DNA from: Candidatus Sungiibacteriota bacterium
GTDB lineage: Bacteria > Patescibacteriota > Minisyncoccia > Sungbacterales > SURF-37
Assembly: GCA_016203665.1 (NCBI GenBank)
Contig: JACQMJ010000004.1
Span: forward strand, 68,214-132,213
Length of the DNA stretch: 64,000 nucleotides
Direction: 5' to 3'
Positions within the stretch are counted from its first letter, which is position 1, and every line of letters begins with the position of its first letter. Made by a program: the position numbers and the translations under genes. Below are positions 972 to 31,657 of the stretch, piece by piece. Under the pieces are notes generated by a model that saw only the letters and a program-made list of their open reading frames with translations, made no database searches and was not told the origin of the DNA.

Positions 972-974
972 GGC

Positions 975-2243: not shown

Positions 2244-2275
2244 ACCTGAAAGACCACGAAGTTAGTATCTCGTTG

Positions 2276-3574
2276 CTATCCAAGTTTCTCCTGAACGTAG
2301 GCCGCCAAATCCGCTGCGGCGACCCGCTCTTGATGCGTCGAATCCCGATCCCGCACCGTTACCGTCCCATCCTCAAGTGTCTGGAAATCAACGGTCACGC
2401 ACCAGGGCGTGCCGATCTCGTCCTGGGCGTAGTAGCGCTTGCCGATATTGCCGCGATCGTCCCAGGCGGCCGCGAAGCGGCTCTTAAGACTGCCGAAGAT
2501 CTCGCGCGCTTTTTCGACGAGCTCGGTCTTATTGGCCAGCAGCGGAAATACGGCAACTTTATACGGCGCCAGTCGGGGATGGAGTTTTAGTAAAATCCTT
2601 TCATCTTCTTCGTGGTAGGCGGAAACGAGTAGTGCGAGCACAGTTCGCTCCACGCCGAAGGTCGGCTCAATTACGTGGGGGGTGAACCGCTCCCGTTTCG
2701 TTTCGTCGTAATACTCGAGCGGCACGCCGGATGCGGCGGCGTGGTTTTTCAGGTCAAATTCGGTGCGATAGGCCAGGCCGAAGAGCTCCTCCCGGCCGAA
2801 TGGAAAATCATAGTCAAGGTCAACGGTGCGGCAGGAATAATGGGCGCGGTCTTTGGAGGGAACTTCGCGATCGCTAACCCCGCGGATCTCCAGAAATTCC
2901 AGCCAGGCGTGCATCTCCTTAAGCCAGTATCCAAAAACATCTTCCCATCCTTCGGGCCGGATAAAGTACTCAATTTCCATCTGTTCAAATTCCCGCGTGC
3001 GGAAAATGAAGTTGCCGGGGGTAATTTCGTTGCGAAAGGCTTTGCCGATCTGCGCCAAGCCGAACGGCAGCTTGGGGTGCATGGTATCCAGGATGTTTTT
3101 GAAATTCACGAACATCCCCTGGGCCGTTTCAGGGCGCAGAAACGTTTCGGCCGCCGTGTCTTCGGTCGGACCGACGTACGTCCGAAACATGGTGTTGAAC
3201 GGCCGCACCTCGGTAAAATCGTTCGCGCCGCATACGGGACAGGCCGCCGTGGTGTCTACCTTATCGGCGCGGAAGCGCGACTTGCACGCTCGGCAATCCA
3301 CCATCGGATCAATGAACGATTGAACGTGACCGGATGTTTCCCATACCTTCCTATGCATCAGGATAGAGCTCGCAATTCCAAACATATCTTCCCGCTGGAT
3401 CACAAAACGCCTCCACCACTCCTGCTTGATGTTGAATTTAAGCTCCACACCCAAGGGCCCGAAATCGTAGAATCCGGCGAGCCCGCCGTAGATCTCCGAG
3501 CCGGGAAACACGAAGCCGCGCCGCTTGGCCAGCGACACGATCTTCTCCATGGCTTTCGGGTCGTCGGTGCGCAT
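2276..3574 (-). CDS. glyQS: glycine--tRNA ligase (alpha2-type class II)
   Basis: 432-aa ORF. The N-terminus MEKIVSLAKRRGFVFPGSEIYGGLAGFYDFGPLGVELKFNI is the canonical GlyRS signature. Confidence 0.95.
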   Translation of the reverse strand: MRTDDPKAMEKIVSLAKRRGFVFPGSEIYGGLAGFYDFGPLGVELKFNIKQEWWRRFVIQREDMFGIASSILMHRKVWETSGHVQSFIDPMVDCRACKSRFRADKVDTTAACPVCGANDFTEVRPFNTMFRTYVGPTEDTAAETFLRPETAQGMFVNFKNILDTMHPKLPFGLAQIGKAFRNEITPGNFIFRTREFEQMEIEYFIRPEGWEDVFGYWLKEMHAWLEFLEIRGVSDREVPSKDRAHYSCRTVDLDYDFPFGREELFGLAYRTEFDLKNHAAASGVPLEYYDETKRERFTPHVIEPTFGVERTVLALLVSAYHEEDERILLKLHPRLAPYKVAVFPLLANKTELVEKAREIFGSLKSRFAAAWDDRGNIGKRYYAQDEIGTPWCVTVDFQTLEDGTVTVRDRDSTHQERVAAADLAAYVQEKLG

Positions 3575-3595
3575 CCGTCTCCTATTGGTACCGCA

Positions 3596-5500: not shown

Positions 5501-5506
5501 TGCTTT

Positions 5507-6136
5507 TCAGTATACCCTGTTCTGGGCCTGGATCGGAGTAAATGCGCTTCCTAATCTCCGGGTAAGCCAAGCCAGCTCCCGTTCCAGCATGACGGGTTCG
5601 GTCTCGATCGCGCCGAGGAGAGAAGGCGGGCTTACCGCGAATTCCCGGAGTGCGGAAATCGTCCCGGCCTCCGGAGAGAGCGGCGAGGGAAAGAGGCCGA
5701 GGAATATAAGGAGCCGGGCGTGAAACCATACGGCGCCGCGCCGGATGGCAGCGGAATCGCGCGCGGTTTCCAGTATAGCCAGCGCAGCCTCGGCTGTGGC
5801 CAAAAGCTCTCTGGCCTGGTCGCGCTCTTCCAGCAGATTACGATCCAGCGTTTCCAGCAGCGCTAAGAGCGCCGCAAGCTTCTCCAGAAAGTTACGGCTC
5901 TTATCCGGAAACACCTCTAGACGGGCCGTAGTCAGCCGGTAGCCATTTCTTCCGACGACGAAGGAAATTTCCGAAATCGCGCCGGGCTCAAGGTGCCCCT
6001 GGAGTTTTGCGCCGTGCTTGCGCGCTCCCTGGGCCAGGAGCCGAATTTTGCCGAAATCAGCAGAGAGGGCCGTGACGCGCCAATCCGCCTCGCCCCATGC
6101 TTCTTTTTTTAGAATAAGCGCGCGGGAGTGATGCAT
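5507..6136 (-). CDS. recO: DNA repair protein RecO
   Basis: The ORF track gives 5507..6184. I prefer the internal ATG at 6136 (MHHSRALILKKEAWGEADWRV...), which removes the 41-nt overlap with ileS. The sequence has an N-terminal OB fold and a helical RecO pattern. Confidence 0.85.
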   Translation of the reverse strand: MHHSRALILKKEAWGEADWRVTALSADFGKIRLLAQGARKHGAKLQGHLEPGAISEISFVVGRNGYRLTTARLEVFPDKSRNFLEKLAALLALLETLDRNLLEERDQARELLATAEAALAILETARDSAAIRRGAVWFHARLLIFLGLFPSPLSPEAGTISALREFAVSPPSLLGAIETEPVMLERELAWLTRRLGSAFTPIQAQNRVY

Positions 6137-6143
6137 ATTTCCG

Positions 6144-9100
6144 TCATGCCCTGCGAATGCCGAGCTTAATGGCGCCGTTGTCAAGCTCTACGTCCCGGGT
6201 AATCGCAGTACTCCATTTTCCTCCGATTTCAATACGGGCCGCGCCCGCCTCGCGCTGAATAAACGGCGACCAGCGCTCAATCAGTGCGGCGATATTTCCG
6301 GCGCCCGATATCTGCACGCGCACGAGCTCACCGGGTTTCAATCCGGCATCACGGCGCAATTCCTGGATGTTCCGCACGAGTTCACGCACCAACCCTTCCT
6401 CACGGAGCTCGGTGGTGATCGTAGTGTCGAGCTTAACTTCGTCGGCGAGGCGCGGGTCAATCACTACGGTTTTCACGTTCACCTCGTCCTGAAGGAGCGT
6501 AAGCAATCCGGGAACTTTTAACCTGGAACTTTTAACTTCCAACTTCGTCAATGGCTGGCGCACCCTAAGCCCGGCTTTCGCCCGCTCGGCCAGCGCCAAC
6601 GCCGCAAGGCGCCGCACCTCGGCCATGCCATCCAGCAAAGCTTTTAGCTTTTGGCTTTTAGCTTTTAGCTTGGCCGTCGGCTTGCTCGCCGTAGCTTTAG
6701 CGGAGGCGGGCCAGTCCCGCAGATGCACGCTCTCCTCCCTAAGTCCGAGTTTTGGCTTGAGCTTTTGGTAAATCACTTCTGAAAGAAAGGGCGTGAACGG
6801 AGCCATAAGTTCTGTGAGCTGAAGCAAAACAGCACCGTGAACAGCTGATGCGGCTTCCCTTGCGGCCGATGATTCCGGCCGCTGGAACCGCCGCCGCGAG
6901 CGGCGTACGTACCAATTTGAGAAATCCTCCACGATGAAATAGTCGAGTAGCCGCGCCGCACCAACAATGTCGTATGCATCGAGTCGTCCCGTTACTGCAG
7001 CCGTAAGTTCATCAATTCTTGCCATCACCCACCGATCCAATACGTTCGCGCTTTTAACTTTTAACTTTTGCTTGCCCGCCGTAGCCTCGGCGAAGGCGGG
7101 ACTTTTAACTTTATCCACGTACGTGTCAAAGAACACGAAGCTGTTCCAAAGCGTGGAAAGTGCACCGCGCAGGCGAAGGAGAATATCCTTCTCGTCAAAG
7201 CGCTTGGGATCGCCCGGAGCGTTTACGGTATAGAAGTACCAGCGGATAGCGTCAGTGCCGTATTTGGCGATCATTGGCAGTGGTTCAATGACATTGCCGC
7301 GGGATTTGGACATTTTCTGGCCGTTTTTATCCAGCACGTGGCCAAGTGAAATGACGTTCCGGTAGGACGTGCCGCGGCCCAGGGCCGTGGAAACTGCCAA
7401 GAGCGTATAAAACCAGCCGCGGGTCTGATCAATGGCTTCGCATATATAATCGGCGGGAAACAATAGCTTTTTACCTTTGACTTTTGACTTTCGACCTTCA
7501 GCGAAGGCGAACGGATAGTGAGCCTGAGCAAACGGCATGGCCCCGGAATCAAACCATACATCGCATACCTCCGGCGCCCTTCGCATCTTACCGGAGCACT
7601 TTCTACACCGCAGGCGGATCTCATCAGCGTACGGCCGATGCAGGTCGAGCTCTCCGGTATCATTGTACGGCCAGTTATGGAGGCGGATAGCCCGGAACTC
7701 GGCCGGTTCAAGATAAGGCGAGGATGGGTAATCCGCTTCAGGCAAACCTTCAAGCGCGGCCATGAGGACCCAAGACGGATCGCCGTGCGTCACGACAAGC
7801 GCCCGCTTGCCCGGGTGCTTCTTTTGAATGGCAAAGACTGCGGCTATCATCCGAGCCCGTACTTCACGGAGGTTTTCGGCGCCGCGGGGCCCGTCAGTGA
7901 AACGGGCGGCAAAATTTGAAAATGAAGCGCGAAATTCATCAACCGGCTGTCCCTCAAAACCTCCGATATTTATATCGGTAAGCTCGGGTAAAGTTTCTAT
8001 GCGTTTAATGCCAAGCGCCTTGGCCACGATTTTAGCCGTTTCCTGGGCGCGCAAAGAAGGCGAGGCGACAATTGCTTGAATCCCTTCTCTTTTCAGCCGC
8101 CTAGCGGCGAGAAGCGCATCGTCCTTGCCGCGAGCTGTCAAAATATTCTTGCCGTCGTTCGCCGGCGAGGGATTTACCAGGCCGTTTACATTATGAAGCG
8201 CCTCGCCGTGGCGCATAAGAATGAGTGTCGTCGGCTGCGGGTCCAGATCGTCAAGCTCCTTAAGCGAGCCGATGATGCGCACCGCATCACACTTTTCGCA
8301 CTGCCACGCCGGCAAAGGGGTGCCCCAGTAGCGCTCGCGCGAAAAGGCCCAGTCGCGCGCCTCGCGGATGAATTCACCGAAGCGACCGTGCTTTAAGTGC
8401 TCCGGCACCCAGTTGATTCTCTTGTTTTCGGCAACGAGTTCCTTCCGGAGTGCGCTCATCTTCACCCACCAGGCTTGGCGCGCATAGTAAAGGAGCGGCG
8501 TGTCGCAGCGCCAGCAAAAGGGATACTCATGCTCATACATTTCCTCGGCAAAAAGCAGGCCTCTCTGTTTCAGCGATCCGATTATGGCGTCCTCGGTTTT
8601 AGGGTCCTTTACGAACAGTCCGCCGAGGCCTTCGCCAAGATTATTTATGAAATGTCCGGTCTCATCCACGGTGTGGAATTTCGGGAGGCCGATCTTGGCG
8701 CCGAGGCGGTAGTCGTCCTCGCCGTACATCACGGCCGTATGCACCACACCCGTCCCCTCCTCCATGGCGACGAAATCGGCCGGATATACGCGGTGCGATT
8801 TTTCATTCTGCAATTCCGGCACGGAAAAAAGCGGCTCATATTCAAGACCGATGATCTTCTTTCCCCAAAACACGTCTATGTCATCAAGCATCGTCCGGTT
8901 GCGGTATTCCGGCGGGAACACGCCTTTCTCAATGAGCGCATCAAGGGTTTTATGCCCCAGCACAACCCAACGCCCTTTTGCCTCGGGATCGGGCACCGAA
9001 ACATATTCTTCTTTTGGATTAACGGCGAGGGCCACGTTCCCCGGCAGGGTCCAGGGCGTAGTTGTCCAGGAAAGAATGGAGGTATTCTGCCATTGGCGGG

Positions 9101-9752
9101 ATGCGGCTTTGATGCGGAACCGCACATAGACCGAGCGGTCTTTCACGGTCGCATAGCCGAGGCCGAGTTCGTGCGTGGAAAGCGCTGTCCCGCAGCGCGG
9201 GCACCATGGCACGACCTTGAAGTCCCGATAGAGAAGTTTTTTCTCCCAAAAGGACTTAATGATCCACCAAAGCGTTTCTATATAGGAAGGTTCGGAGGTG
9301 ATGTACGGACGCCCGAGATCCAGCCAGAAGCCGATGCGTTTCGTGAAGCCATCCCACTCGGCCTTGTAGCGCCATACTGATTCGCGGCACTTGGCGTTGA
9401 ACTTCGCGATGCCGTAGCGCTCAATGTCTTTTTTTGATTTCAGCCCGAGTTCCTTTTCCACCTGAATTTCAACCGGCAGGCCGTGGGTATCCCAGCCGGC
9501 TTTCCGCTCGACATGATACCCCCGCATGGTCTGGTAGCGCGGGATCAAATCCTTGAAGGCGCGGCTTTCAAAATGATGGATGCCGGGATTGCCGTTGGCG
9601 GTCGGCGGTCCCTCGTAAAAGACAAAACGCTTGCCGCGTTTGGTCTTGGCAAGGGTCTTCTCGAAAACCTTGTTCTCCTCCCAAAACTTGAGAACTTCCT
9701 CCTCGCGTTTCGGGAGGTTCAATTGACGCCCGTCATCGCGCATCTCGGCCAT
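6144..9752 (-). CDS. ileS: isoleucine--tRNA ligase with an inserted histidine-phosphatase domain
   Basis: 1202-aa ORF with class I motifs: PGIHH (HIGH-type), WCPRCGT, DQTRGWFY and KMSKSRGN. A ~195-aa foreign domain is inserted (listed as a separate feature). Confidence 0.95.
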   Translation of the reverse strand: MAEMRDDGRQLNLPKREEEVLKFWEENKVFEKTLAKTKRGKRFVFYEGPPTANGNPGIHHFESRAFKDLIPRYQTMRGYHVERKAGWDTHGLPVEIQVEKELGLKSKKDIERYGIAKFNAKCRESVWRYKAEWDGFTKRIGFWLDLGRPYITSEPSYIETLWWIIKSFWEKKLLYRDFKVVPWCPRCGTALSTHELGLGYATVKDRSVYVRFRIKAASRQWQNTSILSWTTTPWTLPGNVALAVNPKEEYVSVPDPEAKGRWVVLGHKTLDALIEKGVFPPEYRNRTMLDDIDVFWGKKIIGLEYEPLFSVPELQNEKSHRVYPADFVAMEEGTGVVHTAVMYGEDDYRLGAKIGLPKFHTVDETGHFINNLGEGLGGLFVKDPKTEDAIIGSLKQRGLLFAEEMYEHEYPFCWRCDTPLLYYARQAWWVKMSALRKELVAENKRINWVPEHLKHGRFGEFIREARDWAFSRERYWGTPLPAWQCEKCDAVRIIGSLKELDDLDPQPTTLILMRHGEALHNVNGLVNPSPANDGKNILTARGKDDALLAARRLKREGIQAIVASPSLRAQETAKIVAKALGIKRIETLPELTDINIGGFEGQPVDEFRASFSNFAARFTDGPRGAENLREVRARMIAAVFAIQKKHPGKRALVVTHGDPSWVLMAALEGLPEADYPSSPYLEPAEFRAIRLHNWPYNDTGELDLHRPYADEIRLRCRKCSGKMRRAPEVCDVWFDSGAMPFAQAHYPFAFAEGRKSKVKGKKLLFPADYICEAIDQTRGWFYTLLAVSTALGRGTSYRNVISLGHVLDKNGQKMSKSRGNVIEPLPMIAKYGTDAIRWYFYTVNAPGDPKRFDEKDILLRLRGALSTLWNSFVFFDTYVDKVKSPAFAEATAGKQKLKVKSANVLDRWVMARIDELTAAVTGRLDAYDIVGAARLLDYFIVEDFSNWYVRRSRRRFQRPESSAAREAASAVHGAVLLQLTELMAPFTPFLSEVIYQKLKPKLGLREESVHLRDWPASAKATASKPTAKLKAKSQKLKALLDGMAEVRRLAALALAERAKAGLRVRQPLTKLEVKSSRLKVPGLLTLLQDEVNVKTVVIDPRLADEVKLDTTITTELREEGLVRELVRNIQELRRDAGLKPGELVRVQISGAGNIAALIERWSPFIQREAGAARIEIGGKWSTAITRDVELDNGAIKLGIRRA
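7653..8244 (-). other. histidine phosphatase (PGAM/CobC-like, branch 1) domain inserted in frame within ileS
   Basis: The motifs TTLILMRHGEALHN, SPSLRAQETA, DINIGGFEGQ and ALVVTHGDPSW supply the RHG, second Arg, Glu and distal His. The insert is flanked by the conserved IleRS blocks WQCEKCDAVRIIGSLKEL and DLHRPYADEIRLRCRKCSGKMRR. Confidence 0.8.
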
Positions 9753-9912
9753 ATTAGCGCGTTTTTTGCGATAAAAAAAGCCCCGATAGCAGGGAATCGT
9801 TCGCGGGGGAGAGTAGCGGCGACGGCTTAGCCAGATCGGGACGATAACCGCGTAAGCACTCGCAACCGCCGGACTGCATCTCAGCGGCTTTCTCTTGACT
9901 GTGTATAATGTT

Positions 9913-9950
9913 TATAAGTTTTATTGGCCGACCGTTCAATAAACCTTATG
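9913..9950 (+). repeat. left copy of a 38-nt direct repeat flanking the 9961..10536 gene
   Basis: tataagttttattggccgaccgttcaataaaccttatg matches 10532..10569 at 32 of 38 positions in my hand alignment. Confidence 0.8.
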
Positions 9951-9960
9951 ATATATAAGC

Positions 9961-10536
9961 ATGCCTATCGCGAGGAGATTCATACGCGTCGTGCCGCGGG
10001 CCGTGCGGCCGAGCCTCACCCAACTGATTCTCGATAAAGTCGGCGGGGCCGGAGAGGCACTGCTCGATAGTTTCTTTCCGGCAAAATACCCCGAAGCCCG
10101 GCTCTGGCGAAAGCTACTCGGACTTGACCGGACCTATGAGTTCAAACGGCCGACCTTCATCGCCATTCTCTTCCAACTCAGGGCGCAAGGCCTGGTGGAA
10201 CGTGCGCCGAAACGCGGCCGTTGGTACTGGCGGCCCACCGCCGCGGGGCGTGCAGCACTGACCAAACGGCGGCGCAGCACACCTCCACCGGACGGACGAA
10301 AACGCCTCGTTTGTTTCGACATCCCCGAGCGGGATCGAGCAAAGCGTCAGTGGCTCCGCGGCGAACTCATCGCTGCCGGCTACCACCAGCTGCAAAAAAG
10401 CGTCTGGATCGGTACGACCCCGCTGCCGCAAGAATTAGTCGAGGCGCTCGATGCGCTCGGACTCCGCGGCCGGGTACACCTCCTACGGGTCGAGTCCGAA
10501 GGAACCCTCAACGAACGGCGGGTCGGTGATGTATAA
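9961..10536 (+). CDS. PaaX-like regulator (winged-helix N-terminus, PaaX_C/Cas2-fold-like C-terminus)
   Basis: 191-aa ORF. The C-terminal RLVCFDIPERDRAKRQWLRGELIAAGYHQLQKSVWIG pattern is typical of the PaaX C-terminal domain. Confidence 0.65.
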   Translation: MPIARRFIRVVPRAVRPSLTQLILDKVGGAGEALLDSFFPAKYPEARLWRKLLGLDRTYEFKRPTFIAILFQLRAQGLVERAPKRGRWYWRPTAAGRAALTKRRRSTPPPDGRKRLVCFDIPERDRAKRQWLRGELIAAGYHQLQKSVWIGTTPLPQELVEALDALGLRGRVHLLRVESEGTLNERRVGDV

Positions 10537-10569
10537 GGTTTATCGGCCGATCGGTCAATAAAGATTATG
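10532..10569 (+). repeat. right copy of the 38-nt direct repeat
   Basis: tataaggtttatcggccgatcggtcaataaagattatg. It starts inside the stop codon of the 9961..10536 gene. Confidence 0.8.
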
Positions 10570-10627
10570 GTCTTTGGCGCCGGTCCCAACGCAACAAAAA
10601 AACCCCGCGACTCCTCTCGGCGCGGGG

Positions 10628-11314
10628 CTACTCGGTGATGAGCTTCGGAAGCTCGGCCAGCGATCCGATTATATGGTCCTCCGGCACGCCTTCCCGGATG
10701 AACGCATGGCGCGGAAGGCCTCCTGAAAGCACCGCAACGAACGGTATGCCGGCCCGATTCGCCACTTCGATGTCGGCGTACCAGTCACCCACGTAGAACG
10801 AGTCGCCTGACTTTACACTGACATCAGCAAAAATCGGCTCGAGAATGCGCGGGTCCGGCTTTTCATAGCCGGCTCGTTCACGCGTGGCAATGGAATGAAA
10901 CCACGCAGGATCGATGCCGGCATGTTTGAGCTTTGACGCTATGGCTCGCTCATCATTCATCGTACAAAGCGCTACCATGATGCCGTTCTCACGAAGCCAG
11001 CCGATGGCCTCGATGCTTCCAGGTATCGGCGGGTAACCGATGCGCTCTTCCTCCCCCCGGAACGCCCAGTAATACGCCCTAGCGTCATTTTCCGAAAGCC
11101 ATGGCCAGAGCGATCGTACGATAATGCTGAAACGCGGATGACCGCGATTACTGCCGTCGCAGTGGCCGGCGAGATAGGCCTCGATGGGCTCGAGCGGCAA
11201 ACCCCGTAACCTCGCGGCCTGTCGGAGGATAGTGCCGTAGTTCGCCATGAGATCGACCACCACCCCATCAAAGTCAAGAATGCCGAGCCGCACTTCATTG
11301 CCAAAGAGCTTCAT
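10628..11314 (-). CDS. HAD-superfamily hydrolase (phosphoglycolate phosphatase-like)
   Basis: Start moved to the ATG at 11314 (MKLFGNEVRLGILDFDGVVVDL, DxDG motif I), which is preceded by the perfect SD AAGGAGGTGA. Motif IV is YVGDWYADIEVANRAG. Confidence 0.85.
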   Translation of the reverse strand: MKLFGNEVRLGILDFDGVVVDLMANYGTILRQAARLRGLPLEPIEAYLAGHCDGSNRGHPRFSIIVRSLWPWLSENDARAYYWAFRGEEERIGYPPIPGSIEAIGWLRENGIMVALCTMNDERAIASKLKHAGIDPAWFHSIATRERAGYEKPDPRILEPIFADVSVKSGDSFYVGDWYADIEVANRAGIPFVAVLSGGLPRHAFIREGVPEDHIIGSLAELPKLITE

Positions 11315-11436
11315 GCGGTTCACCTCCTTTCCGGACGCCACCGTATCATTTCTCACCACCCTCACACAAGCTCGGCGGCGCGCTTCTCGGGACACTCAAC
11401 TGAAGAGCGAGCTCCGGAAGCGCGCCGTCGAGCGTC

Positions 11437-13185
11437 TCACATCTCTTCCGGCGCTTCGATACCAAGAAGACCCAGACCGTTTTTCAGAGTATCCGCGATG
11501 CCGGAGACGAGCGCCAACCTAAATTCCAGCTTAGCCGCATCCGTTTCCTGCAAAACGGGATGGGAATGATAAAACTCGTTCGCAAGCTTGGCGAGACCAA
11601 AAAGGTAGCTCGCGAGTGTATTAGGAGTGTAATCCCGGAGTGCATCCTCAATCGCCTCCGGCAGCCGGAGCATGGCTGCGAGGAGCCGGTGCTCGAGCGC
11701 GTCAAACGCTGATTTCTCAATTTCTAATTTCCCAATTTCCTTTCCGTACTTTCGCAAAATGCTCCTCAATCGCGCATAGGTGTATTGGAGATAGGGCGCT
11801 GATGCCCCCTCAAGGTTCAGCATCTGATCCCACTCGAACGTGATATCCGAAAGACGATGGTGGAAGAGGTCGTAGTACTTCACTGCTCCCACGCCGACTG
11901 CCCTCGCTATCCTCGCTTTCTTTTCCTCCGGCAGCTCGGGATTCAGCCGCTCGACGACGGCGCGGCTGCGCTGGATCGCCTCTCCAAGAACTTCCACCAG
12001 CGGTATCAGTCGCCCTTCGCGGGTGGCGAACTTCTTCCCGCCCGGCCCGAGCATCATGCCGAACTTCACATGCACGAGTTGCCCCGGCTTGGCGTACCCC
12101 AAGAGTTCAGCCGAGCGAAACACCTGTTCAAGGTGGAACGTCTGCTGGTTCGCGGCGACATACAAAAGCTTGCTGGCGTTCCACTGCTGTATCCTGTGGC
12201 GAATGGCGGCAAGTTCCCGAGTGGTGTAAATCGTCGCCCCGTCTGATTTTTGAATAATCTCCGGCGTCGAGCTACTGGGAATGGGGATGACCACCGAACC
12301 ATCATCGCTCCTCTTTGCGATGCCGCGCTCGAGCGCGTCATGGATAATACCCCGCAGTTCCGGTTCGTAGAAGCTCTCCCCAATGGTGTGTTCGATCTTC
12401 ACGCCAAGGAGTTCATACACCCGGTTGAAATCCCGCAGTGACTCGTCGAGAAACCACTGCCAGAGCTTGCGATTCTCCGGATCACCGTCCTCCAGCTTCT
12501 TGAACTCCTCCCGCCCTTCCCCAAGTAGTTCAGTGTTTTCCTTCGCAGCCTGCGAGAACCGGACGTAGAGATCCAGCATCTCTTCAATGGGGTGCGCCTT
12601 AATTTTTTCAGGATCCCCCCATCGCTTGTAGCCGGCGATGAGCAGTCCGAACTGTGTGCCCCAATCGCCAGGGAAGCTCAACGACACCGCCTGGTAGCCT
12701 CCGGCCCGCAGAAGGTTCACGATCGCCTGCCCGATGATGGTCGATCGCAGGTGGTGCACGCCGAGGGGCTTGGCAATGTTCGGCGAGGAGTACTCCACAA
12801 CAACGGTCTCCCCATTCCCGAGATCGCTCCGCCACCAAATATCCGGCTCGGCGAGCGCAGCGCCGAGCGAGCCCGCGAGGAGCTCATCGGAGAGACTGAT
12901 GTTCACGAATCCGGGGGCGGCCGCCGCGGCGGCCGCCACGACTGCGGCTCCGCGGGAAGCAGAGCATTTTCCCAACCGTGCCGCGATATGTTCAGCAACT
13001 TCCAGTGGCGGGCGCCCAATGCGCTGGCCGATGATGAGGGCTGCATTCGTGGCGTAATCGCCGCGGTCGGCCTCTTCCGACGCCGTGACCGTAAACAGAG
13101 GAACATCAAATGGCGGGAGCGCCTTCTCCTGTTGCAGATCGGCAATAGCCCGCAGGATCAATGGCCGCAATTGGTTCCGAAACAT
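11437..13185 (-). CDS. argS: arginine--tRNA ligase
   Basis: 582-aa ORF with typical ArgRS N-terminal, catalytic (HHLRSTIIGQA) and DALR anticodon-binding regions. Confidence 0.93.
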   Translation of the reverse strand: MFRNQLRPLILRAIADLQQEKALPPFDVPLFTVTASEEADRGDYATNAALIIGQRIGRPPLEVAEHIAARLGKCSASRGAAVVAAAAAAAPGFVNISLSDELLAGSLGAALAEPDIWWRSDLGNGETVVVEYSSPNIAKPLGVHHLRSTIIGQAIVNLLRAGGYQAVSLSFPGDWGTQFGLLIAGYKRWGDPEKIKAHPIEEMLDLYVRFSQAAKENTELLGEGREEFKKLEDGDPENRKLWQWFLDESLRDFNRVYELLGVKIEHTIGESFYEPELRGIIHDALERGIAKRSDDGSVVIPIPSSSTPEIIQKSDGATIYTTRELAAIRHRIQQWNASKLLYVAANQQTFHLEQVFRSAELLGYAKPGQLVHVKFGMMLGPGGKKFATREGRLIPLVEVLGEAIQRSRAVVERLNPELPEEKKARIARAVGVGAVKYYDLFHHRLSDITFEWDQMLNLEGASAPYLQYTYARLRSILRKYGKEIGKLEIEKSAFDALEHRLLAAMLRLPEAIEDALRDYTPNTLASYLFGLAKLANEFYHSHPVLQETDAAKLEFRLALVSGIADTLKNGLGLLGIEAPEEM

Positions 13186-13234
13186 AATGGCTTCAATCTA
13201 ACAGAACCGGACGGAATAAAAAACGGAGCGGGCC

Positions 13235-13474
13235 CTAAGAACCGCTCCCGAACCGCGAAAAGAGCTTCCCTCCCACGTGCGCAAGAGCTGTCGCGGCGGC
13301 TCCGATCGCAATGACCGAGATCGCCCCGAGGACGCGGATCACCCAGGCCATCGTCCACCCCGCGTTGAGCGGTATGGAGTCCTCTTCTCCCGCTTCGCAG
13401 CGGCATCCGCCTTCGCGCGCGACGGAAACAACCGGGTGAGGAAGCGGGCAATTTCCGTATCCCTGACAAACCAT
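13235..13474 (-). CDS. small Cys-rich protein with a C-terminal TM helix (hypothetical)
   Basis: An internal ATG at 13474 is preceded by GGGAGA. The product is MVCQGYGNCPLPHP...AWVIRVLGAISVIAIGAAATALA. The longer track ORF would overlap smpB. Confidence 0.4.
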   Translation of the reverse strand: MVCQGYGNCPLPHPVVSVAREGGCRCEAGEEDSIPLNAGWTMAWVIRVLGAISVIAIGAAATALAHVGGKLFSRFGSGS

Positions 13475-13518
13475 CGTGTCTCCCTTTTTCGGATGTGTTA
13501 GCGTAGAAATACCACGAT

Positions 13519-13965
13519 ATGCCCGTACTAGCAACCAGCCGCCGCGCCGAATTTGACTACGAGATCCTCGAAACATATGAGGCCGGCCTTGAACTTTTCG
13601 GGTTTGAAGTTAAATCAGTGCGTGCCGACCGCATGAACTTGGCAGGAGCGTTCGTGCTCATGCGCGGCGGAGAGGCATGGCTCGTCAATGCCGCCATCCC
13701 GCCCTACCAGGCCGCCAACACCCCGGCCGGCTACGATCCGGAACGTCCGCGAAAGCTCCTCCTACATCGCCGCGAGCTAAAGGAACTTATCGGCAAATCC
13801 GCGCAAAAGGGCTTGACTTTGGTCGCTTTACGGGTGTACACTAAAGGCCCGCGGATTAAAATCGCGTTCGGGCTTGCCCGCCGGAAAAAGACGTACGACA
13901 AGCGCGAGCGCATCCGCGAACGGGAAGATCGGAAAAAAATAGAACGGACCCTGCGCGAACGCTAG
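13519..13965 (+). CDS. smpB: SsrA-binding protein SmpB
   Basis: 148-aa ORF: ATSRRAEFDYEILETYEAGLELFGFEVKSVR...KLLLHRRE. Confidence 0.95.
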   Translation: MPVLATSRRAEFDYEILETYEAGLELFGFEVKSVRADRMNLAGAFVLMRGGEAWLVNAAIPPYQAANTPAGYDPERPRKLLLHRRELKELIGKSAQKGLTLVALRVYTKGPRIKIAFGLARRKKTYDKRERIREREDRKKIERTLRER

Positions 13966-14340
13966 GGGGTGATAGGCCTCGACGAAATATTGTTCGCTCA
14001 AGGGGCAGGCCGAGGGCGCTTGGGACACCTCGCTAAAAACCCGCAACCAATAAGTGCAAACTTATTCAAAAACGCCTTTAGTCCTGCTCTTGCAGTAGCC
14101 TAACGGCGTCCCCGCTCCGGTAAGCCGGAGCGGCATCGGCGGACGGATGCTCGATACGTCCTCACCGGTGTCACTTATCGAGCTGGGCCGCGGAACTCCG
14201 GTACCGCGGCCGAGATGCACCGGAAAAGCGTTGGAGGATTTTGCCCGGTTTAACCGCCAATGCCCATACCAGCCGGGCTACGCCTGTAAACCTCATGAGC
14301 CGGCATATTCCGGACGGGAGTTCAATTCTCCCCACCTCCA
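13965..14340 (+). ncRNA. ssrA: tmRNA (SsrA)
   Basis: The 5' GGGGGUG pairs with the 3' CACCUCC, including the G3:U alanine identity pair, followed by discriminator A. The T-arm is GGGAG-UUCAAUU-CUCCC. The tag reading frame runs from GCA at 14056 to TAA at 14103 and encodes ANLFKNAFSPALAVA. Confidence 0.9.
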
Positions 14341-14347
14341 TACCATG

Positions 14348-14374
14348 AAAACCGCCCCCTGAAGGGCGGTTTTC
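14348..14374 (+). terminator. intrinsic terminator after ssrA
   Basis: aaaaccgccc-cctgaa-gggcggtttt hairpin with a T-run. Confidence 0.75.
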
Positions 14375-14447
14375 ACTCCACGCCGAAATTGACTTCTCCC
14401 CTTATTTCCGCTACCGTTCCTAGGTATCAGATGAGACTCGCTTAACA

Positions 14448-14963
14448 ATACCCGTTATCCTCCGACGCTACCGCATAAACAATCAGATCCGCGCTCCGCG
14501 CGTGCGCGCCATTGACGAGACCGGGAAAAACCTCGGCGAAATGGGGCTGGAAGACGCGTTTAAGATCGCCGAGGAGCGCCGGCTCGACGTGATCGAAATC
14601 GCGCCGACTGCCAACCCGCCGGTGGTGAAAATAATGGATTTCGGCAAGTTCAAGTACGACGAGGCGAGGAAAGAGCGCGAGCACCGGCCGAAGGAAAAGC
14701 ACGTCTCGGAGGTAAAAATGCTCCGCATCGGGTTCAAAACGGGCCGGCACGATCTTGAACTCCGCGCCAAGCAGTCCGAAGAGTTTCTGGCTGAAGGCCA
14801 CAAGGTTAAAGTAGACATGGTGCTCCGCGGCCGCGAAAAGGCTCTTCGCGACTTCGCCCGTAAGAGATTTGCCGAGTTCCTTGCGCTCATCCCTGGACAC
14901 GCGCTTGAGCAGGGCATCAAGGCCACGCCGCATGGGTTCACGGCAATCTTGAAACGGGCCTAA
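14448..14963 (+). CDS. infC: translation initiation factor IF-3
   Basis: The track ORF starts at GTG 14502, but the in-frame upstream sequence reads (I)PVILRRYRINNQIRAPRVRAIDETGKNLG, the conserved IF-3 N-terminus. A non-ATG start (ATA 14448 or ATC 14457) is therefore likely, as is usual for infC. The exact start is uncertain. Confidence 0.85.
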   Translation: MPVILRRYRINNQIRAPRVRAIDETGKNLGEMGLEDAFKIAEERRLDVIEIAPTANPPVVKIMDFGKFKYDEARKEREHRPKEKHVSEVKMLRIGFKTGRHDLELRAKQSEEFLAEGHKVKVDMVLRGREKALRDFARKRFAEFLALIPGHALEQGIKATPHGFTAILKRA

Positions 14964-15030
14964 GGCTAAAAAGACAAAGACGAACGCAGTATGCCTTTGT
15001 CTTTAGTCCTCCAACTTTCGTCCCACGAAC

Positions 15031-15213
15031 ATGGCTAAACCCAATAAATCCATCCGCAAACGCATCAAGCTGACCAAAACCGGCAAACTCATCCGTAGGG
15101 TCGCCGGCCAGAACCATTTCAACGCCAAGGAATCCGGCCGCATGCGGCGCCGAAAAGGAACAAGCGTTCCATTTCCCCGTTCGTTCCGCCGCGAAATTTT
15201 AGCTCGCCTCTAA
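15031..15213 (+). CDS. rpmI: 50S ribosomal protein L35
   Basis: MAKPNKSIRKRIKLTKTGKLIRRVAGQNHFNAKESG. Confidence 0.93.
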   Translation: MAKPNKSIRKRIKLTKTGKLIRRVAGQNHFNAKESGRMRRRKGTSVPFPRSFRREILARL

Positions 15214-15279
15214 CATCACCTAATCCGTCATCGCAGCCGCATATTTGCAGATCCGCATTCATTTGTAGATTAGCACCAT

Positions 15280-15624
15280 ATGTCCCGAGTCAAACGCGGC
15301 GTCATTGCCCACAAGCGGCGCGAGAAAACCCTCCGCTACACAAAGGGGTTCCGCTGGACGAGGAAATCCAAGGAGCGCGCAGCCAAAGACGCGCTCCTCC
15401 ACGCCTGGTCCCACGCGTTTAGCGACCGTAAGCGGAAGAAACGCGAATTCCGGCGGCTCTGGAATATCAAGATCAATGCCGGAGCGCGGCTCCATGGCCT
15501 TTCCTATTCACGCCTAATCTCTTCACTTCAAAAAAAGCAGATCGCGCTCGACCGCAAAATACTCGCCGACCTCGCTGAACACGAGCCGAAGGTGTTCGAG
15601 CGTATAGTAGCCGCGGGAAAGTAG
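15280..15624 (+). CDS. rplT: 50S ribosomal protein L20
   Basis: MSRVKRGVIAHKRREKTLRYTKGFRWTRKSKERAAKDALLHAW. Confidence 0.95.
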   Translation: MSRVKRGVIAHKRREKTLRYTKGFRWTRKSKERAAKDALLHAWSHAFSDRKRKKREFRRLWNIKINAGARLHGLSYSRLISSLQKKQIALDRKILADLAEHEPKVFERIVAAGK

Positions 15625-15632
15625 CGGAATAG

Positions 15633-15665
15633 AAAACCGCCCGGCCATTTGCCGGGCGGTTTTCT
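15633..15665. terminator. bidirectional intrinsic terminator between rplT and the ZIP gene
   Basis: aaaaccgcccggc-cattt-gccgggcggtttt hairpin, with an A-run and a T-run on its two sides. Confidence 0.8.
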
Positions 15666-15739
15666 ATAATCTCTTGCAGAGCACCGCGGGCGGCTCGCCT
15701 CGCCGAAGCTTTGGCGAAGCGCGGGAAGCCCGTGGGTAT

Positions 15740-16500: not shown

Positions 16501-16854
16501 CTAATGACGAACGACTAATAACTTCGGCGAGTGGATGCGATAGCGAGGAAGGCTGATGCGCCCGGCCGAAATCTCTACGCCCTCCGCCAGGAGTTTTTTT
16601 ATCTTCCCAGCAGTTCCGCCGGGCAGGCCGAAGCCGCCGACCCGACCGTCCGAGCGAACCACGCGGTGGCAGGGTGTTTTGGGATCGCGGTTTTGTCCGA
16701 GAACGGTTCCGACGCGGCGCCAGGCCCGGGGACAGCCCACGGCGCAGGCAAGGTCAGCGTACGTGGCGACATGGCCGCGGGGGATGCGCCGCGTTGCGGC
16801 GTACACCCCGTACCACAACTGCTGGGATTTTGGCTTGAAACATGCTCTTGCCAT
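16501..16854 (-). CDS. ogt: methylated-DNA--protein-cysteine methyltransferase (MGMT/Ogt DNA-binding domain)
   Basis: PCHRVV active-site motif in TPCHRVVRSDGRVGGF. Short single-domain form (117 aa). Confidence 0.88.
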   Translation of the reverse strand: MARACFKPKSQQLWYGVYAATRRIPRGHVATYADLACAVGCPRAWRRVGTVLGQNRDPKTPCHRVVRSDGRVGGFGLPGGTAGKIKKLLAEGVEISAGRISLPRYRIHSPKLLVVRH

Positions 16855-16867
16855 GCGTCGCTACGGT

Positions 16868-17401
16868 TTACCTCCGCTCGCGGTGGTGAGGTGCCCGCGT
16901 TGTGGTACGGGGTAAATTTTTTTCGATAAATTCATAGGCCTGCTTCAAGATGGCCTGGGTATTCTTGTACCGCGCCACCTTCAACGCTTCGCGGTACGTG
17001 AACCAGGCAAACCCCTCATGCTCTTCGGATATGGCTATATGGCGCGTTCGCGCCTCAACGAGATAATATATGACGATCTTGAATACCTGGCCCCGCTCTG
17101 CCGCCGGCTTGGCATTAGAAGTCGCGGGCTGGGCATAGCGATCAAAAAATGTGTAGCGGTCCGTGGCGCGGAAGCCCGAGAGGACCCGCATATCCTGATG
17201 CTTTAATCCAGTTTCCTCCTCCACCTCGCGCAGAAACGCCTGGGTGGCGCGCTCGCCCTCCTCAAGCTTGCCCTTGGGAAAATTCCAGTAGTTACGGCCG
17301 TGGTAAAGAAGAAGAAACTTCAAATGCCCGCCTGCCTGCCGGTCAGGCAGGTCGCGGCCGCGGCGGAAAATTACGGCTCCGGCTGAAATAACTCGCCTCA
17401 T
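16868..17401 (-). CDS. NUDIX hydrolase
   Basis: Nudix box GKLEEGERATQAFLREVEEETGL. ATGA overlap with polX. Confidence 0.88.
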   Translation of the reverse strand: MRRVISAGAVIFRRGRDLPDRQAGGHLKFLLLYHGRNYWNFPKGKLEEGERATQAFLREVEEETGLKHQDMRVLSGFRATDRYTFFDRYAQPATSNAKPAAERGQVFKIVIYYLVEARTRHIAISEEHEGFAWFTYREALKVARYKNTQAILKQAYEFIEKNLPRTTTRAPHHRERR

Positions 17402-19694: not shown

Positions 19695-19839
19695 GGCTGC
19701 TGATTTTTACCCCTGCAAGTTCTCTAGCGAGCCTCCAGAGACCCGACCCGACGGCAAGTTTCTTATCCGCGCTCATGCGCTTGAAAATCGCATCCTGACG
19801 TTCCTCGGCGGTTTGTACCTGGCTGTCTTCCGGGTGCAT
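19642..19839 (-). CDS. small hypothetical ORF upstream of the NTase gene
   Basis: 65-aa ORF (TAEERQDAIFKRMSADKKLAVGSGLWRLARELAG...). It overlaps the NTase start by 53 nt, and a TATAAT lies on the minus strand at 19912..19907. Weak support. Confidence 0.3.
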   Translation of the reverse strand: MHPEDSQVQTAEERQDAIFKRMSADKKLAVGSGLWRLARELAGVKISSHGINRSQASPRRRHEDS

Positions 19840-20212
19840 ACCATTATGCTAACACACTGGCCGCCAGAAGCCGTGACCTCCCGCATATTCGCCTACTGCC
19901 GGAGCCATTATACGAACAAGATGTAATGACTTCCCGTCGTGTGGTGAACGAAAAAGCCCGCTCGCTGTAAGGCCCGGAGAACATCCCGTGGCCGGAGCGC
20001 GGACAGGCGTTCGCGCATGGAACTAGAGCAAAATCCTCACCTTCTCCTTTACCGGATCAAGCTGCAGCTTACCGGAGAGTTTCCTGCAACATGCGTCCGT
20101 GATAGTTCAAATGGGGCAGTAAATCAACCACGCATCCCTCGAGCGCGGCGGTGCCGCCTCTCGGAACGCTCGATCAAGGAGCGCCACCGCCCTATGCATG
20201 CCCCTCCAAGAG

Positions 20213-20386
20213 CCCCACGCGTATATTTTTCTCCATCGGGGTCGCGGAGCGACGGGTTGCCAGTCGGCAACCCAGGGCTTTTGCGAGGGGCAAAAGGGCA
20301 GTGGGATCCCTGGGCTGAAAACCGTCCCGCGATTCGCGGGACGGTTTTCTAGAAATGGAGGCGTGAAGAAAAATATATGCGCGGGG
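20213..20386 (+). repeat. stem-closed intergenic element, family copy 1 (GGCAGTGGGA...GAGGCGT core)
   Basis: The outer arms ccccacgcgtatatttttctcca (20213-20235) and tgaagaaaaatatatgcgcgggg (20364-20386) are complementary. The core motifs are at 20297-20306 and 20358-20364. A perfect 15-bp hairpin, gaaaaccgtcccgcg-att-cgcgggacggttttc, spans 20317-20349. Confidence 0.75.
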
Positions 20387-20391
20387 TTCTC

Positions 20392-21030
20392 TTACACCCT
20401 TTTCTGTTCGATGAACACCCTCTGTGCCGGTGAGGGCACCTTTGGACGGATATAGGGCCGGAGGAAGACGAGAACAATGAGGCCGACGAGCATGAGCGTA
20501 CCGTTCACGAGGAAGAGCGGCCGGATGCCGACGAGCCCGACGAGGATGCCCGACAGCACCCCGCCGATAGCCCCGCCGGCGCCGAAAGAGAAGCTTGACT
20601 GCAATGCCCATTCAAATCCCTCCGCACCGCTGTCAATATGGCGGGTGAAGATGGCGTAGAGCGGCGGAATGGCAAAGGCATCGCCAATAGCGATCAACGC
20701 CTGAATGGCAAAGATATGCCAAAGCTCCGCGGCGAAATAGAAAAGGAAGACCCCGGTCATCGTAATGGTGATGCCGGCGAGGAGCGAATAGTAATCGTCA
20801 ATCTCGCCGTGGTTCTTGTCGAGATAGCGGGCGATGGGGAGCTGGAGGATTGATTTCATCGCCCAGTAGACAGCCGAGGCGAAGCCCACGGCCGCCGCCG
20901 CCGCGCCGATATCCCGTACGACGAAAATGGCGAAGAGCGGCGCTGACAAGCTCACCGCCATCGTAAAAATGAACTGCGCGAAGATGATTACAAGAATAAC
21001 CTGGTTCAGTTTTAGAAATGCGAACTTCAT
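20392..21030 (-). CDS. half-size (6-TM) MFS-like membrane protein
   Basis: 212-aa hydrophobic ORF with an MFS motif-A-like loop (LPIARYLDKNHGE). It is only one six-helix bundle long, and its stop lies 6 nt from repeat copy 1. Confidence 0.65.
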   Translation of the reverse strand: MKFAFLKLNQVILVIIFAQFIFTMAVSLSAPLFAIFVVRDIGAAAAAVGFASAVYWAMKSILQLPIARYLDKNHGEIDDYYSLLAGITITMTGVFLFYFAAELWHIFAIQALIAIGDAFAIPPLYAIFTRHIDSGAEGFEWALQSSFSFGAGGAIGGVLSGILVGLVGIRPLFLVNGTLMLVGLIVLVFLRPYIRPKVPSPAQRVFIEQKRV

Positions 21031-27198: not shown

Positions 27199-27271
27199 CG
27201 TCCCCGAGAGGATTTGAACCTCTGGCCTCTTCCTTCGGAGGGAAGCGCTCTATCCGCTGAGCTACGGGGAC
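27199..27271 (-). tRNA. tRNA-Arg (anticodon CCG)
   Basis: Hand-folded 73-nt cloverleaf: GTCCCCG TA GCTC AGCGGATA GAGC G CTTCC CTCCGAA GGAAG AGGCC AGAGG TTCAAAT CCTCT CGGGGAC G. CCA is not encoded. Confidence 0.92.
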
Positions 27272-29128: not shown

Positions 29129-30056
29129 GAAAACATATCCGTTGTTCGCCCTCTAGGACCCCATAGTCACAAGTGTGTTGTAAGGTGCTGACACTGCTAT
29201 GGGATCTTAGAGGACGGAGGAGTGAGGTCGGCCGGGAGATCGCTACTGCTGAACCCCGGACACTGTTACACTCCTCGTCGTCCCGGTTTGCTTGGCGGGC
29301 CTACATCGCAGGATCGGCACAGTAGGACAGCTCTCGACTGCCGCTGGCTTAGCCGCGAAAGGGATCCGCCTGCCCGGCGCCGCACGGGCGCCTTTTGGCC
29401 ACTACGGGACGAAAACTTCGTAAAGAGAGCTACAGCTCTGCACCTCTGGTACGGAACAGCCAACGGCAACGCGCCATGGGCTCCCCCTCAGCGTTCGCAG
29501 ATGAGAGTTGTCGCCGAGGCAAGATTCGCGCGCCCCAGCGAACGGTGAACTGCCGTACGGGCATCCCCTGCGAGCCTGTCGGGGTTCAGGGATGCCTCAT
29601 AGCTGGAAACTACATCCGGCTTCCGCACGAATACCCTCCCCGGCCACACGATGACGATAAGCGCCTCTCATGTCCGGAGTCAGCTATCCACACGGCATGG
29701 GCCCGACTGCTCGCAAACCCACCCCCACGCTCGCCGGCCCTGGGCACGGGCTCAACCCCGCCCGCGTAACAGTGCGGCACGAAGTGGACCATAGTCACCT
29801 CCTTTCCCGCCGTTTTACCTTTCGATATTTCCTTCCCGAACCTGAGGCCTTTTAGCCGCTCCCGCACCCATCGCGGCAATACTTCTAGCCAGTCGTGCTT
29901 TGCCGGACAGCCGTTACTAAAGCATGTGCTGAAATAATCTAGAAATCTAGCGGATATACGCGCTTGCTGCGATCGGTGCGAAAGCGAGCCGGATTTTTGA
30001 GGAGGGTCAAAAACCCTTTATCAAAGCCCCAGATCTGGGAAGGAAATTTTCAAGAC
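29129..30056 (-). ncRNA. candidate large non-coding transcript, or giant 5' leader of the ABC gene
   Basis: No credible ORF in six frames across ~0.93 kb, despite coding-like GC richness. A near-consensus promoter points into it and a hairpin sits at its end. See findings. Confidence 0.4.
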
Positions 30057-30062
30057 AATTAT

Positions 30063-30090
30063 ATTATACACCCATAACCTATTTTGTCAA
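30063..30090 (-). promoter_or_regulatory. near-consensus sigma70-type promoter, TTGACA-16 nt-TATAAT
   Basis: On the reverse strand, TTGACA is at 30090-30085 and TATAAT at 30068-30063. An extra TTGACT is at 30104-30099. Confidence 0.7.
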
Positions 30091-30121
30091 GTCCATATAG
30101 TCAACTAACTTCTTAGTAACT

Positions 30122-30155
30122 CCCATACATGATTACGATCGTAATCATGTATGGG
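30122..30155. repeat. perfect 34-nt palindrome
   Basis: cccatacatgattacgatcgtaatcatgtatggg is its own reverse complement, centred on cgatcg. Confidence 0.95.
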
Positions 30156-30233
30156 GCTTGCAGACAAAAGACAAAAGAGAAAAACGGGCCTTGGCCCGCG
30201 TAAGCGTGGCTTTTAGTTTTCAACTTTTAGATC

Positions 30234-31539: not shown

Positions 31540-31657
31540 GTGAACCCCGTTACAACCCGGCCTAAAGGCCGGGGCCTCCAATGAGGCAGTGGAACTCTCC
31601 ATTCCTCCCCGCCCTGAAGGGTGAGGCGTCCAGGTTGTAACGGGGTGAATAGTTCAC
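31540..31657 (+). repeat. stem-closed intergenic element, family copy 3 (GGCAGTGGAA...GAGGCGT)
   Basis: The outer stem is gtgaaccccgttacaacc (31540-31557) paired with ggttgtaacgggg[tgaatag]ttcac (31633-31657). The inner hairpins are cccggcc-taaa-ggccggg and gcctc-caat-gaggc. The core motifs are at 31585-31594 and 31623-31629. Confidence 0.7.

Follow-up and report, generated by a model that had tools for sequence, protein, structure and literature searches.

Intergenic elements of 100-170 bp with long inverted repeats, which are co-transcribed, are known as Correia elements in Neisseria, as ERIC/IRU elements in enterobacteria and as RUP and BOX elements in pneumococci. They may contribute terminators or RNase III sites, and both full-length and internally deleted forms are found. 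Their terminal repeats are conserved, they are present in some strains and absent from others, and a single genome may hold tens to hundreds of them; Correia elements additionally show a TA duplication. REPINs combine two inverted, conserved terminal REP (repetitive extragenic palindromic) 16-mers with a variable spacer, also occur in tens to hundreds of copies and are accompanied by a RAYT gene. In attC sites, whose length is variable, the imperfect hairpin rather than the sequence of its arms matters, and the outer R''/R' boxes are conserved whereas the centre varies. The RNase III stems of the rRNA operon and of phage T7 intergenic regions are fixed features of single loci, whose closing helix spans some 20 bp or more and is free in sequence as long as it pairs; the enzyme requires roughly two helical turns. 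The genomes of Patescibacteria (candidate phyla radiation, CPR) are tiny and gene-dense, and to our knowledge little work has been devoted to their non-coding DNA. Here we describe a hairpin-closed intergenic element that is present in two copies (copies 1 and 2) in a 64,000-nucleotide stretch of DNA of Candidatus Sungiibacteriota (contig JACQMJ010000004.1, GC content about 58%), which is referred to as the window in the following.

Architecture and covariation of the element

Copies 1 and 2 are true homologues, which share the same core, have closing stems of 21-23 bp and lie in intergenic regions, copy 1 next to a minus-strand gene for a 212-aa protein of the major facilitator superfamily (MFS) and copy 2 between pilB (plus strand) and ruvB; elements of this kind are 100-175 nt long. 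Their parts are listed below, where the plus strand is the strand of the shared motifs and is not assigned as the functional strand. R1 designates a covariance model of 174 positions and 43 pairs, which was built from both copies and the orthologue of copy 2 in a relative (L036e, GCA_030697585.1).

20213-20386, plus strand: copy 1, full-length form, 174 nt, 188.5 bits with R1
20213-20235, plus strand: 5' arm of the copy 1 closing stem, CCCCACGCGTATATTTTTCTCCA
20241-20296, plus strand: three small hairpins of copy 1 (20241-20253, 20254-20273 and 20278-20296), retained in L036e but lost from copy 2
20297-20315, plus strand: 19-nt core of copy 1, GGCAGTGGGATCCCTGGGC, identical in copy 2 and in a homologue at locus L001, one mismatch in L036
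20317-20349, plus strand: internal perfect hairpin of copy 1 with A-tract and T-tract, in the form of the bidirectional intrinsic terminators of this genome, −28.7 kcal/mol
20358-20364, plus strand: GAGGCGT box adjoining the 3' arm of copy 1
20364-20386, plus strand: 3' arm of the copy 1 closing stem, TGAAGAAAAATATATGCGCGGGG, ending 5 nt from the MFS stop codon
49580-49683, plus strand: copy 2, short form, 104 nt, a deletion derivative without the three small hairpins, 75.5 bits with R1
49608-49626, plus strand: 19-nt core of copy 2
49628-49648, plus strand: internal 9-bp hairpin of copy 2, GAAAATCGC/GCGATTTTC, weak and AU-rich

The full-length unit of about 160-175 nt is closed by an inverted repeat of 21-23 bp, the left arm of which consists of a GC-rich block followed by T5 and the right arm of A5 followed by a GC-rich block, i.e. 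the reverse of the A-tract-stem-T-tract order of terminators. Its interior holds the three small hairpins, the near-invariant 19-nt core, the terminator-shaped hairpin and a GGAGGCGTG box. The closing stems are almost wholly Watson-Crick paired across at least 21 bp: the arms of copy 1 comprise 23 nt each, and those of copy 2 (49580-49600 and 49663-49683) are complementary at 21/21 positions. Common to both copies are TTTTTSTCCATCGG, GAGGCGTGRASAAAAA, the 19-nt core, GAGGCGTG beside the 3' arm and a GAAAA...TTTTC hairpin, whose stem comprises 15-16 bp in copy 1 and 9 bp in copy 2. The internal complementarity of the closing stems, the shared motifs and the paired internal hairpin had all been described in an initial annotation of the window, and for these two copies we could validate each of them. 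The same holds for the ordered motif pair GGCAGTGGRA-N25-55-GAGGCGT, which occurs three times in the window and was matched in 0/100 shuffles. The immediate flanks of the element are inverted and not direct repeats (AAGAG and CTCTT around copy 1, TAAGCG and CGCTTA around copy 2). Predicted folding energies on the two strands were −95.8 and −93.5 kcal/mol for copy 1 (z-scores −7.5 and −10.7 relative to shuffles) and −58.6 and −56.5 kcal/mol for copy 2 (z-scores −7.9 and −9.9). A scan for promoter consensus sequences found nothing in copy 1 and at best a weak 9/12 match in copy 2.

The closing stems had been considered unrelated in sequence, which is incorrect as far as copies 1 and 2 are concerned. 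In the alignment of both copies with L036e, 13 of 18 stem pairs are invariant, four are changed on both sides and one is a C-A mismatch in copy 1; the outermost 3-5 bp cannot be aligned among the three. The picture is extended by L060e, an 83-nt element in another relative, in which neither the three small hairpins nor the terminator-like hairpin is present. It keeps CATCGGG, GGTGGGGTCC (GGTGGG.TCC) and GAGGCGTG, and is closed by a 21-bp stem that differs from that of copy 2 at 11/21 positions, all of them compensated, one as U-G. When L060e is included, 11/18 stem pairs show changes on both sides, none is changed on one side only and 98.6% of the alignment cells are paired, values that were reached by 0/500 shuffles, while shifted registers are about 50% paired; having been fitted to the model, this alignment is biased in favour of the structure. 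The combination of conserved core motifs with a compensated closing helix, as proposed initially, is thus borne out.

A further correction concerns the segment at 20241-20296, which had been described as an insertion of about 55 nt in copy 1. L036e occupies the site of copy 2 and has the same closing stem and the same short internal hairpin. In addition it carries the three-hairpin segment known from copy 1, altered by a single compensated change (CTTTTGC/GCAAAAG versus CTTTCGC/GCGAAAG) and one G-U change. From this we conclude that the segment is ancestral and that copy 2 is a deletion derivative, i.e. the polarity is reversed. Overall, copy 1 and L036e are 84% identical, and copy 2 and L036e differ at 4/107 aligned positions, two of which lie at the deletion junction.

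The initial annotation had counted the sequence at 31540-31657 as a third copy. While the homology of copies 1 and 2 stands, this 'copy 3', which is located between two minus-strand genes, gave no match to R1 at E ≤ 10 and no BLAST similarity to either of them, and what it has in common with them are the two short motifs only. Its folding energy is −60.3 kcal/mol on both strands (z-scores −5.4 and −4.9). It aligns instead with another element of the window, with which it shares ACCCCGT..ACAAC ends and a 3' GGTGAGGYGYCC..GTTGT..ACGGGGT block; through the motif pair that was absent from all 100 shuffles, it may still be distantly related to copies 1 and 2.

31544-31646, strand unassigned: 'copy 3', a separate hairpin-closed element with the ends ACCCCGTTACAACC...GGTTGTAACGGGGT
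16805-16913, strand unassigned: its nearest relative in the window, ACCCCGTACCACAAC...GTTGTGGTACGGGGT

Gain, loss and distribution of the element

Comparison of orthologous sites showed that the element comes and goes as an entire block, both in short spacers and at the 3' ends of genes. The spacer between pilB and ruvB is filled in the window, in L036 (RuvB 87% identical) and in L060 (88%) and is empty in L046, L047 and L048 (86%), L038 (82%) and L041 (83%); RuvB identities across these relatives are all within 79-88%, yet both filled and empty sites occur. The empty site of L046 reads TTTCCAT followed directly by TGTTATCTCCCC, and the filled sites gain CYAAGCRA, the hairpin unit and (C)GAG. 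The left flank of L060e, ATTTCCATCYAAGCGA, is identical to that of the window at 17/18 positions, and its right flank, CGAGTGTTCTCTCCCC, is identical to that of L036. The site at the 3' end of the MFS gene is filled in the window's own genome alone: L033 and L045 have unrelated sequence there, and L035 carries a different hairpin-closed element, whose ends ACCCCGCACTAATTTTGC resemble the arm of copy 1 on the MFS strand, ACCCCGCGCATATATTTTT. Within the species, copy 1 showed no polymorphism, as it is identical in five Logan assemblies and in the contig deposited at NCBI. Internal deletions are tolerated, with copy 2 lacking the three hairpins and L060e lacking these and the terminator-like hairpin, and the two arms remain complementary whatever their sequence.

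The family has so far been observed in Sungbacteria-like genomes only. A search with R1 over about 285 kb of loci from the source genome and its relatives (redundant assemblies counted) identified five copies only, namely copy 1, copy 2, L036e (also assembled as L037; 218.6 bits), L060e and a fragment in L001, with scores of 56-219 bits and E-values of 1e-10 to 1e-46. The L001 fragment was also the only homologous sequence among the nine exact matches to the 18-mer core in 185,579 species genomes. It is cut by a contig end, as happens to assemblies at repeats, and although its genome is labelled Saccharibacteria, the best matches of the neighbouring protein are from Sungbacteria. The same 18-mer gave 12 matches in JGI metagenomes, none of them homologous and most with coding-like flanks, and no match in IMG/VR viral contigs. 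Family copies are located at three unrelated loci, and their orientation relative to the neighbouring genes is variable.

Several possible origins were rejected. In 81 kb of viral loci, R1 matched one isolated 20-nt hairpin and nothing else; a phage or plasmid origin was dismissed, as BLAST against phages was null and the single viral match to the 18-nt sequence of hairpin 2 was an isolated chance match, and ten viral matches to GAGGCGTGGACAAAAA were not accepted as family members. The idea that the stems are spacer-like copies of foreign DNA was discarded because three arm sequences had no match in IMG/VR. The 5' arm of copy 1 (20213-20235) matches coding DNA of PolX (HADILFH motif) at 19/23 positions in L033:12797 and L035:12721, a borderline value that was reached by 2/300 shuffles, and the window's own PolX gene matches at 16/23; a copy from nearby host DNA was therefore rejected, the match being probably due to chance. 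Rfam (version 15) identified only a tmRNA and one tRNA in the whole window at gathering thresholds and nothing relevant at permissive ones (E ≤ 10 over 20100-20500, E ≤ 1 over the window), so that the family is absent from Rfam, a match to which had been named as removing its novelty. A known RNA or ribozyme was likewise rejected, as the hammerhead and twister cores did not fit by eye either, and full-text literature searches found no description of the family. The family itself is apparently undescribed; the kind of element is already known.

Mobile cassette, structured RNA or DNA site

The reading that we favour, and to which we give roughly even odds, is that copies 1 and 2 are MITE/REPIN-like (MITE, miniature inverted-repeat transposable element) palindromic cassettes of low copy number with a terminator-like hairpin, which possibly also act as RNA. 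Presence and absence at orthologous loci together with dispersed paralogous copies is what is expected of a MITE, and further support comes from the elements with shared ends in the surroundings (see below), the compensated stems, the terminator-like hairpin and the lack of an Rfam match. In such a cassette, the arms would be kept matched by the need to fold as a hairpin, in single-stranded DNA or in a transcript, for propagation or retention; alternatively, one arm might be repaired from the other via template switching. The inserted unit would supply or replace the terminator of the upstream gene, and it would be co-transcribed with the neighbouring genes.

The initial annotation had instead concluded that the element is a structured RNA or structure-specific site and not a MITE. 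Some of its premises stood, in that the family is real, the helix is compensated and Rfam contains no counterpart, but the step from these to an RNA did not. That the element would for this reason not be mobile does not follow, in view of the presence/absence pattern, of the surrounding elements with conserved ends and of mobile REPIN DNA, in which compensated arm changes are common (PMC3116915). Conserved termini and target-site duplications had been named as signs of a MITE, and here the outcome was divided: the termini are partly conserved, with the inner stem pairs largely identical among copies 1, 2 and L036e, the outermost ones different and half of the stem changed in L060e, and a target-site duplication was not found.

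The comparison with described systems is divided as well. Like REPINs and REP sequences, the element is a short, intergenic, long hairpin with compensated arms, without a classical target-site duplication, vertically persistent and of low impact. Unlike REPINs, it has a conserved centre and inner stem with variable outer ends, a low copy number in the sampled DNA (two copies in about 80 kb), no GTAG-type REP head at its ends and no RAYT or Y1 Pfam match in the approximately 100 kb annotated. It resembles the Correia, ERIC, RUP and BOX elements in its length, its long closing inverted repeat, its full-length and internally deleted forms and its variable presence, and like them it would be co-transcribed and could provide terminators or RNase III sites, but fully conserved terminal repeats, a TA duplication and a high copy number were not observed. 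With attC sites it shares the variable length and the dependence on an imperfect hairpin rather than on arm sequence, but the distribution of conservation between ends and centre is the opposite; the ends CCCCACG..., GGCCGCC... and AGCTACC... lack RYYYAAC...GTTRRRY, and the annotations of the neighbourhood contain neither an integrase nor a cassette array. With RNase III processing stems it has in common a long intergenic closing helix whose sequence is free provided that pairing is kept, and it differs from them in consisting of dispersed paralogous cassettes.

Several observations weigh against a mobile cassette. Direct repeats are absent when the filled sites of L036 and L060 are compared with the empty site of L046, and the flanks extend the inverted symmetry of the element rather than duplicate a target. 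Conservation is higher in the centre than at the outermost ends, unlike in MITEs and REPINs, and core motifs can be found even in L060e, which is degenerate. No transposase or RAYT-like gene is among the Pfam annotations for about 100 kb of the source genome, the copy number given above is low, and R1 found no copy in six relatives, for which roughly 100 kb of distinct sequence were covered. Finally, copy 2 and L036e are 96-98% identical, compared to about 85% for the coding flanks and 45-60% for unstructured spacer; in sliding windows of 60 nt, identity was 90-97% in the element, 82-100% in an adjacent RNA, about 80-90% in the coding flanks and 45-60% in the unstructured spacer. This high identity may reflect purifying selection or a recently shared copy.

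The main rival view sees the element as a structured RNA module that acts in cis and is under selection, co-transcribed as part of the MFS 3' untranslated region in the case of copy 1 and downstream of a minus-strand RNA in the case of copy 2, in which the helix of at least 21 bp would act as an RNase III or stability element, the junction core would bind a protein or RNA, and the gains and losses would be ordinary indels. We regard this as possible, though on the doubtful side. An identity of copy 2 and L036e that exceeds that of the adjacent RNA (about 82-100% per 60-nt window) and lies far above that of spacer argues for it, as do the changes on both sides in the closing stem and in hairpin 3, the survival of CATCGGG, GGTGGG.TCC and GAGGCGTG in L060e, and the adjacent promoter-driven RNA with the same architecture of a long closing stem; stems of 21-23 bp would also fit the two helical turns generally needed by RNase III. 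The strand signal is inconsistent: there are several G-U mismatches on the plus strand (in hairpin 2 of L036e and in the stem of L060e), and L060e folds with −51.2 kcal/mol on the plus and −43.3 kcal/mol on the minus strand, but the G-U versus A-C pattern in the closing stem of copy 1 points to the minus strand. An assignment of the strand from such mismatches was rejected, since the counts are few and point in both directions. The orientation relative to transcription also varies by locus, and the element is patchy among close relatives. Moreover, the internal hairpin of copy 1, which on the minus strand begins 42 nt beyond the MFS stop codon and is followed by TTTTC, is similar to the palindromes of the window at 15629-15667 and at 14326-14380 (after the tmRNA gene). 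If it terminates, the transcript would end ahead of the 3' arm, which would then rarely be transcribed, so that the complementarity of the arms would not be purely a feature of RNA; a consensus terminator scan flagged neither this hairpin nor the weak one of copy 2 (−10.4 kcal/mol). Steady compensatory drift is also a poor fit to the stems at the pilB-ruvB site, which are identical to copy 2 at 21/21 positions in L036e and at 10/21 in L060e at a similar host distance, and this contrast suggests replacement events. A selected RNA role is compatible with the cassette and does not exclude it.

A structure-specific DNA site, i.e. a single-stranded hairpin for a recombinase or an HUH/Y1 enzyme, comparable to attC or to the ends of IS200/IS605, with the TGGGATCCC core as protein-binding site, would be in line with the lack of a target-site duplication and with the conserved near-palindromic core. 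At both independent loci TTCTCT adjoins the right end, and in four or five copies CCAAG(C)RA is found at the left end, which hints at sequence-specific insertion. However, these flank similarities are short and were noticed post hoc, neither an integrase nor a Y1 transposase is annotated in the neighbourhoods, the two ends are paired with one another instead of forming separate subterminal hairpins, and the attC boxes GTTRRRY/RYYYAAC are absent from the ends. We consider such a site quite improbable. Chance similarity among ordinary terminator hairpins, for which one could invoke the likeness of the copy 1 internal hairpin to ordinary terminators of this genome, is hardly credible in view of the 19/19 core with ordered flanking motifs in copies 1, 2 and L001 (one core mismatch in L036), the R1 scores and E-values and the lack of the motif pair in shuffles. 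For copies 1 and 2 it is refuted, and it is possible solely for the link to 'copy 3'. A bolder proposal, which we hold to be unlikely, is a new CPR hairpin module with the junction core CATCGGG ... GGCAGTGGGATCCC ... GAGGCGTG, in which a helix of at least 21 bp turns over faster than its flanks and yet stays perfectly paired. Such a module might be a small RNA that is freed by RNase III and co-transcribed with the promoter-driven RNA, or it might be a hairpin element that serves as its own template, restoring its arms and moving without duplication of a target site.

Genomic surroundings and meaning

Inverted-repeat scans of the window and its relatives revealed many intergenic elements of 90-190 nt with closing stems of 14-24 bp, several of which have ends that start with ACCCCG(T/C) and finish with CGGGGT. 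Examples are located at the following positions:

Window: 16805-16913 and 31544-31646
Relatives: L035:10497-10643; L033:5421-5529; L038:4696-4879 and 14572-14680; L041:12401-12507 and 20571-20663; L036:12618-12850

Some of these families recur at different loci and in different genomes, as L035:10497-10643 resembles L038:4696-4879 (common termini ACCCCGCRC.AATTTTGC) and L033:5421-5529 resembles L038:14572-14680 (common termini ATGCCCGGT..TACAACTT). The stop-start overlap of yebC and ruvC (52539-52545 in the window) is intact in the window and in L038, and it is split by a 105-nt element in L041 (junction region 12396-12512) and by two tandem elements of 233 nt in total in L036 (junction region 12615-12850), both unambiguous insertions; the element of L041 provides both the stop codon of yebC and the start codon of ruvC. 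From these insertions and the recurring families we conclude that the insertion of hairpin cassettes is ongoing in this lineage. In addition, an element at 29827-30047 in the spacer 29770-30233, adjoining two genes with RNase H-like Pfam matches, has closing arms of 25 nt that are 80% complementary.

Perfect palindromes of 34-44 bp without a loop, with A-tract and T-tract, were observed at convergent gene ends such as that of rpsT, and are probably the long bidirectional terminators typical of the lineage:

Window: 41672-41715 and 30122-30155
Relatives: L038:496-531; L041:13184-13221 and 17015-17048

The tmRNA gene at 13965-14343 (134.6 bits) is followed by a terminator that resembles the internal hairpin of copy 1; the single tRNA gene lies at 27199-27271.

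Copy 2 is located 9 nt downstream, on the minus strand, of the adjacent RNA mentioned above:

49693-49862, minus strand: conserved structured RNA, about 170 nt long, closed by a stem of 21 bp and containing a four-way junction, nine covarying pairs in five Sungbacteria
49946-49974, minus strand: sigma-70-type promoter TTGACA-17-TATAAT (12/12) with a preceding TG, hexamers nearly invariant in five relatives

The promoter variant of L041 has one A-to-G change ahead of the −10 hexamer. The RNA has no Rfam match. In relatives it is followed on the same strand by a small open reading frame (51-192 aa), which is absent in the window, and judged by this arrangement it may be a leader or riboswitch-like RNA.

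The MFS gene next to copy 1 (20392-21030) had been described as half-size. It shows no sign of truncation, as the at least 120 homologues listed have consistent lengths of 192-251 aa, most of them 210-216 aa; the protein belongs to a family of constant length in Sungbacteria and other Patescibacteria, and may act as a dimer of halves with six transmembrane segments. Likewise, a history of decay in the approximately 280 nt of non-coding DNA on the other side of copy 1 was rejected, because tblastn with the spacer genes of relatives found no pseudogene remnant in 19695-20212. This spacer contains, adjoining copy 1 at 20141-20180, a 40-nt block (GATCGAGCG..GGCGG..CCGCC..CGCTC) with a small hairpin, which is 90% identical to L033:10746-10785 within otherwise unalignable sequence. 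The MFS protein is named in GCA_964559385.1 as a product of a Candidatus Sungbacteria metagenome-assembled genome (CPR/Patescibacteria). The window corresponds to two contigs of that assembly (1-15690 and 15691-64000; CAZLFX010000001 and CAZLFX010000003) and thus represents the same genome in a more contiguous version.

Taken together, the spacers of Sungbacteria are populated by hairpin-closed cassettes that are gained and lost between close relatives, some of which supply terminator-like hairpins and some stop and start codons, and one family can exchange half of the positions of its closing stem and still be perfectly paired. Should this stem replacement turn out to be active, it would be relevant to the maintenance of palindromic DNA and to the exchange of terminators in reduced genomes; if not, the family would add a tidy new case to a type of selfish or domesticated repeat that is already known.

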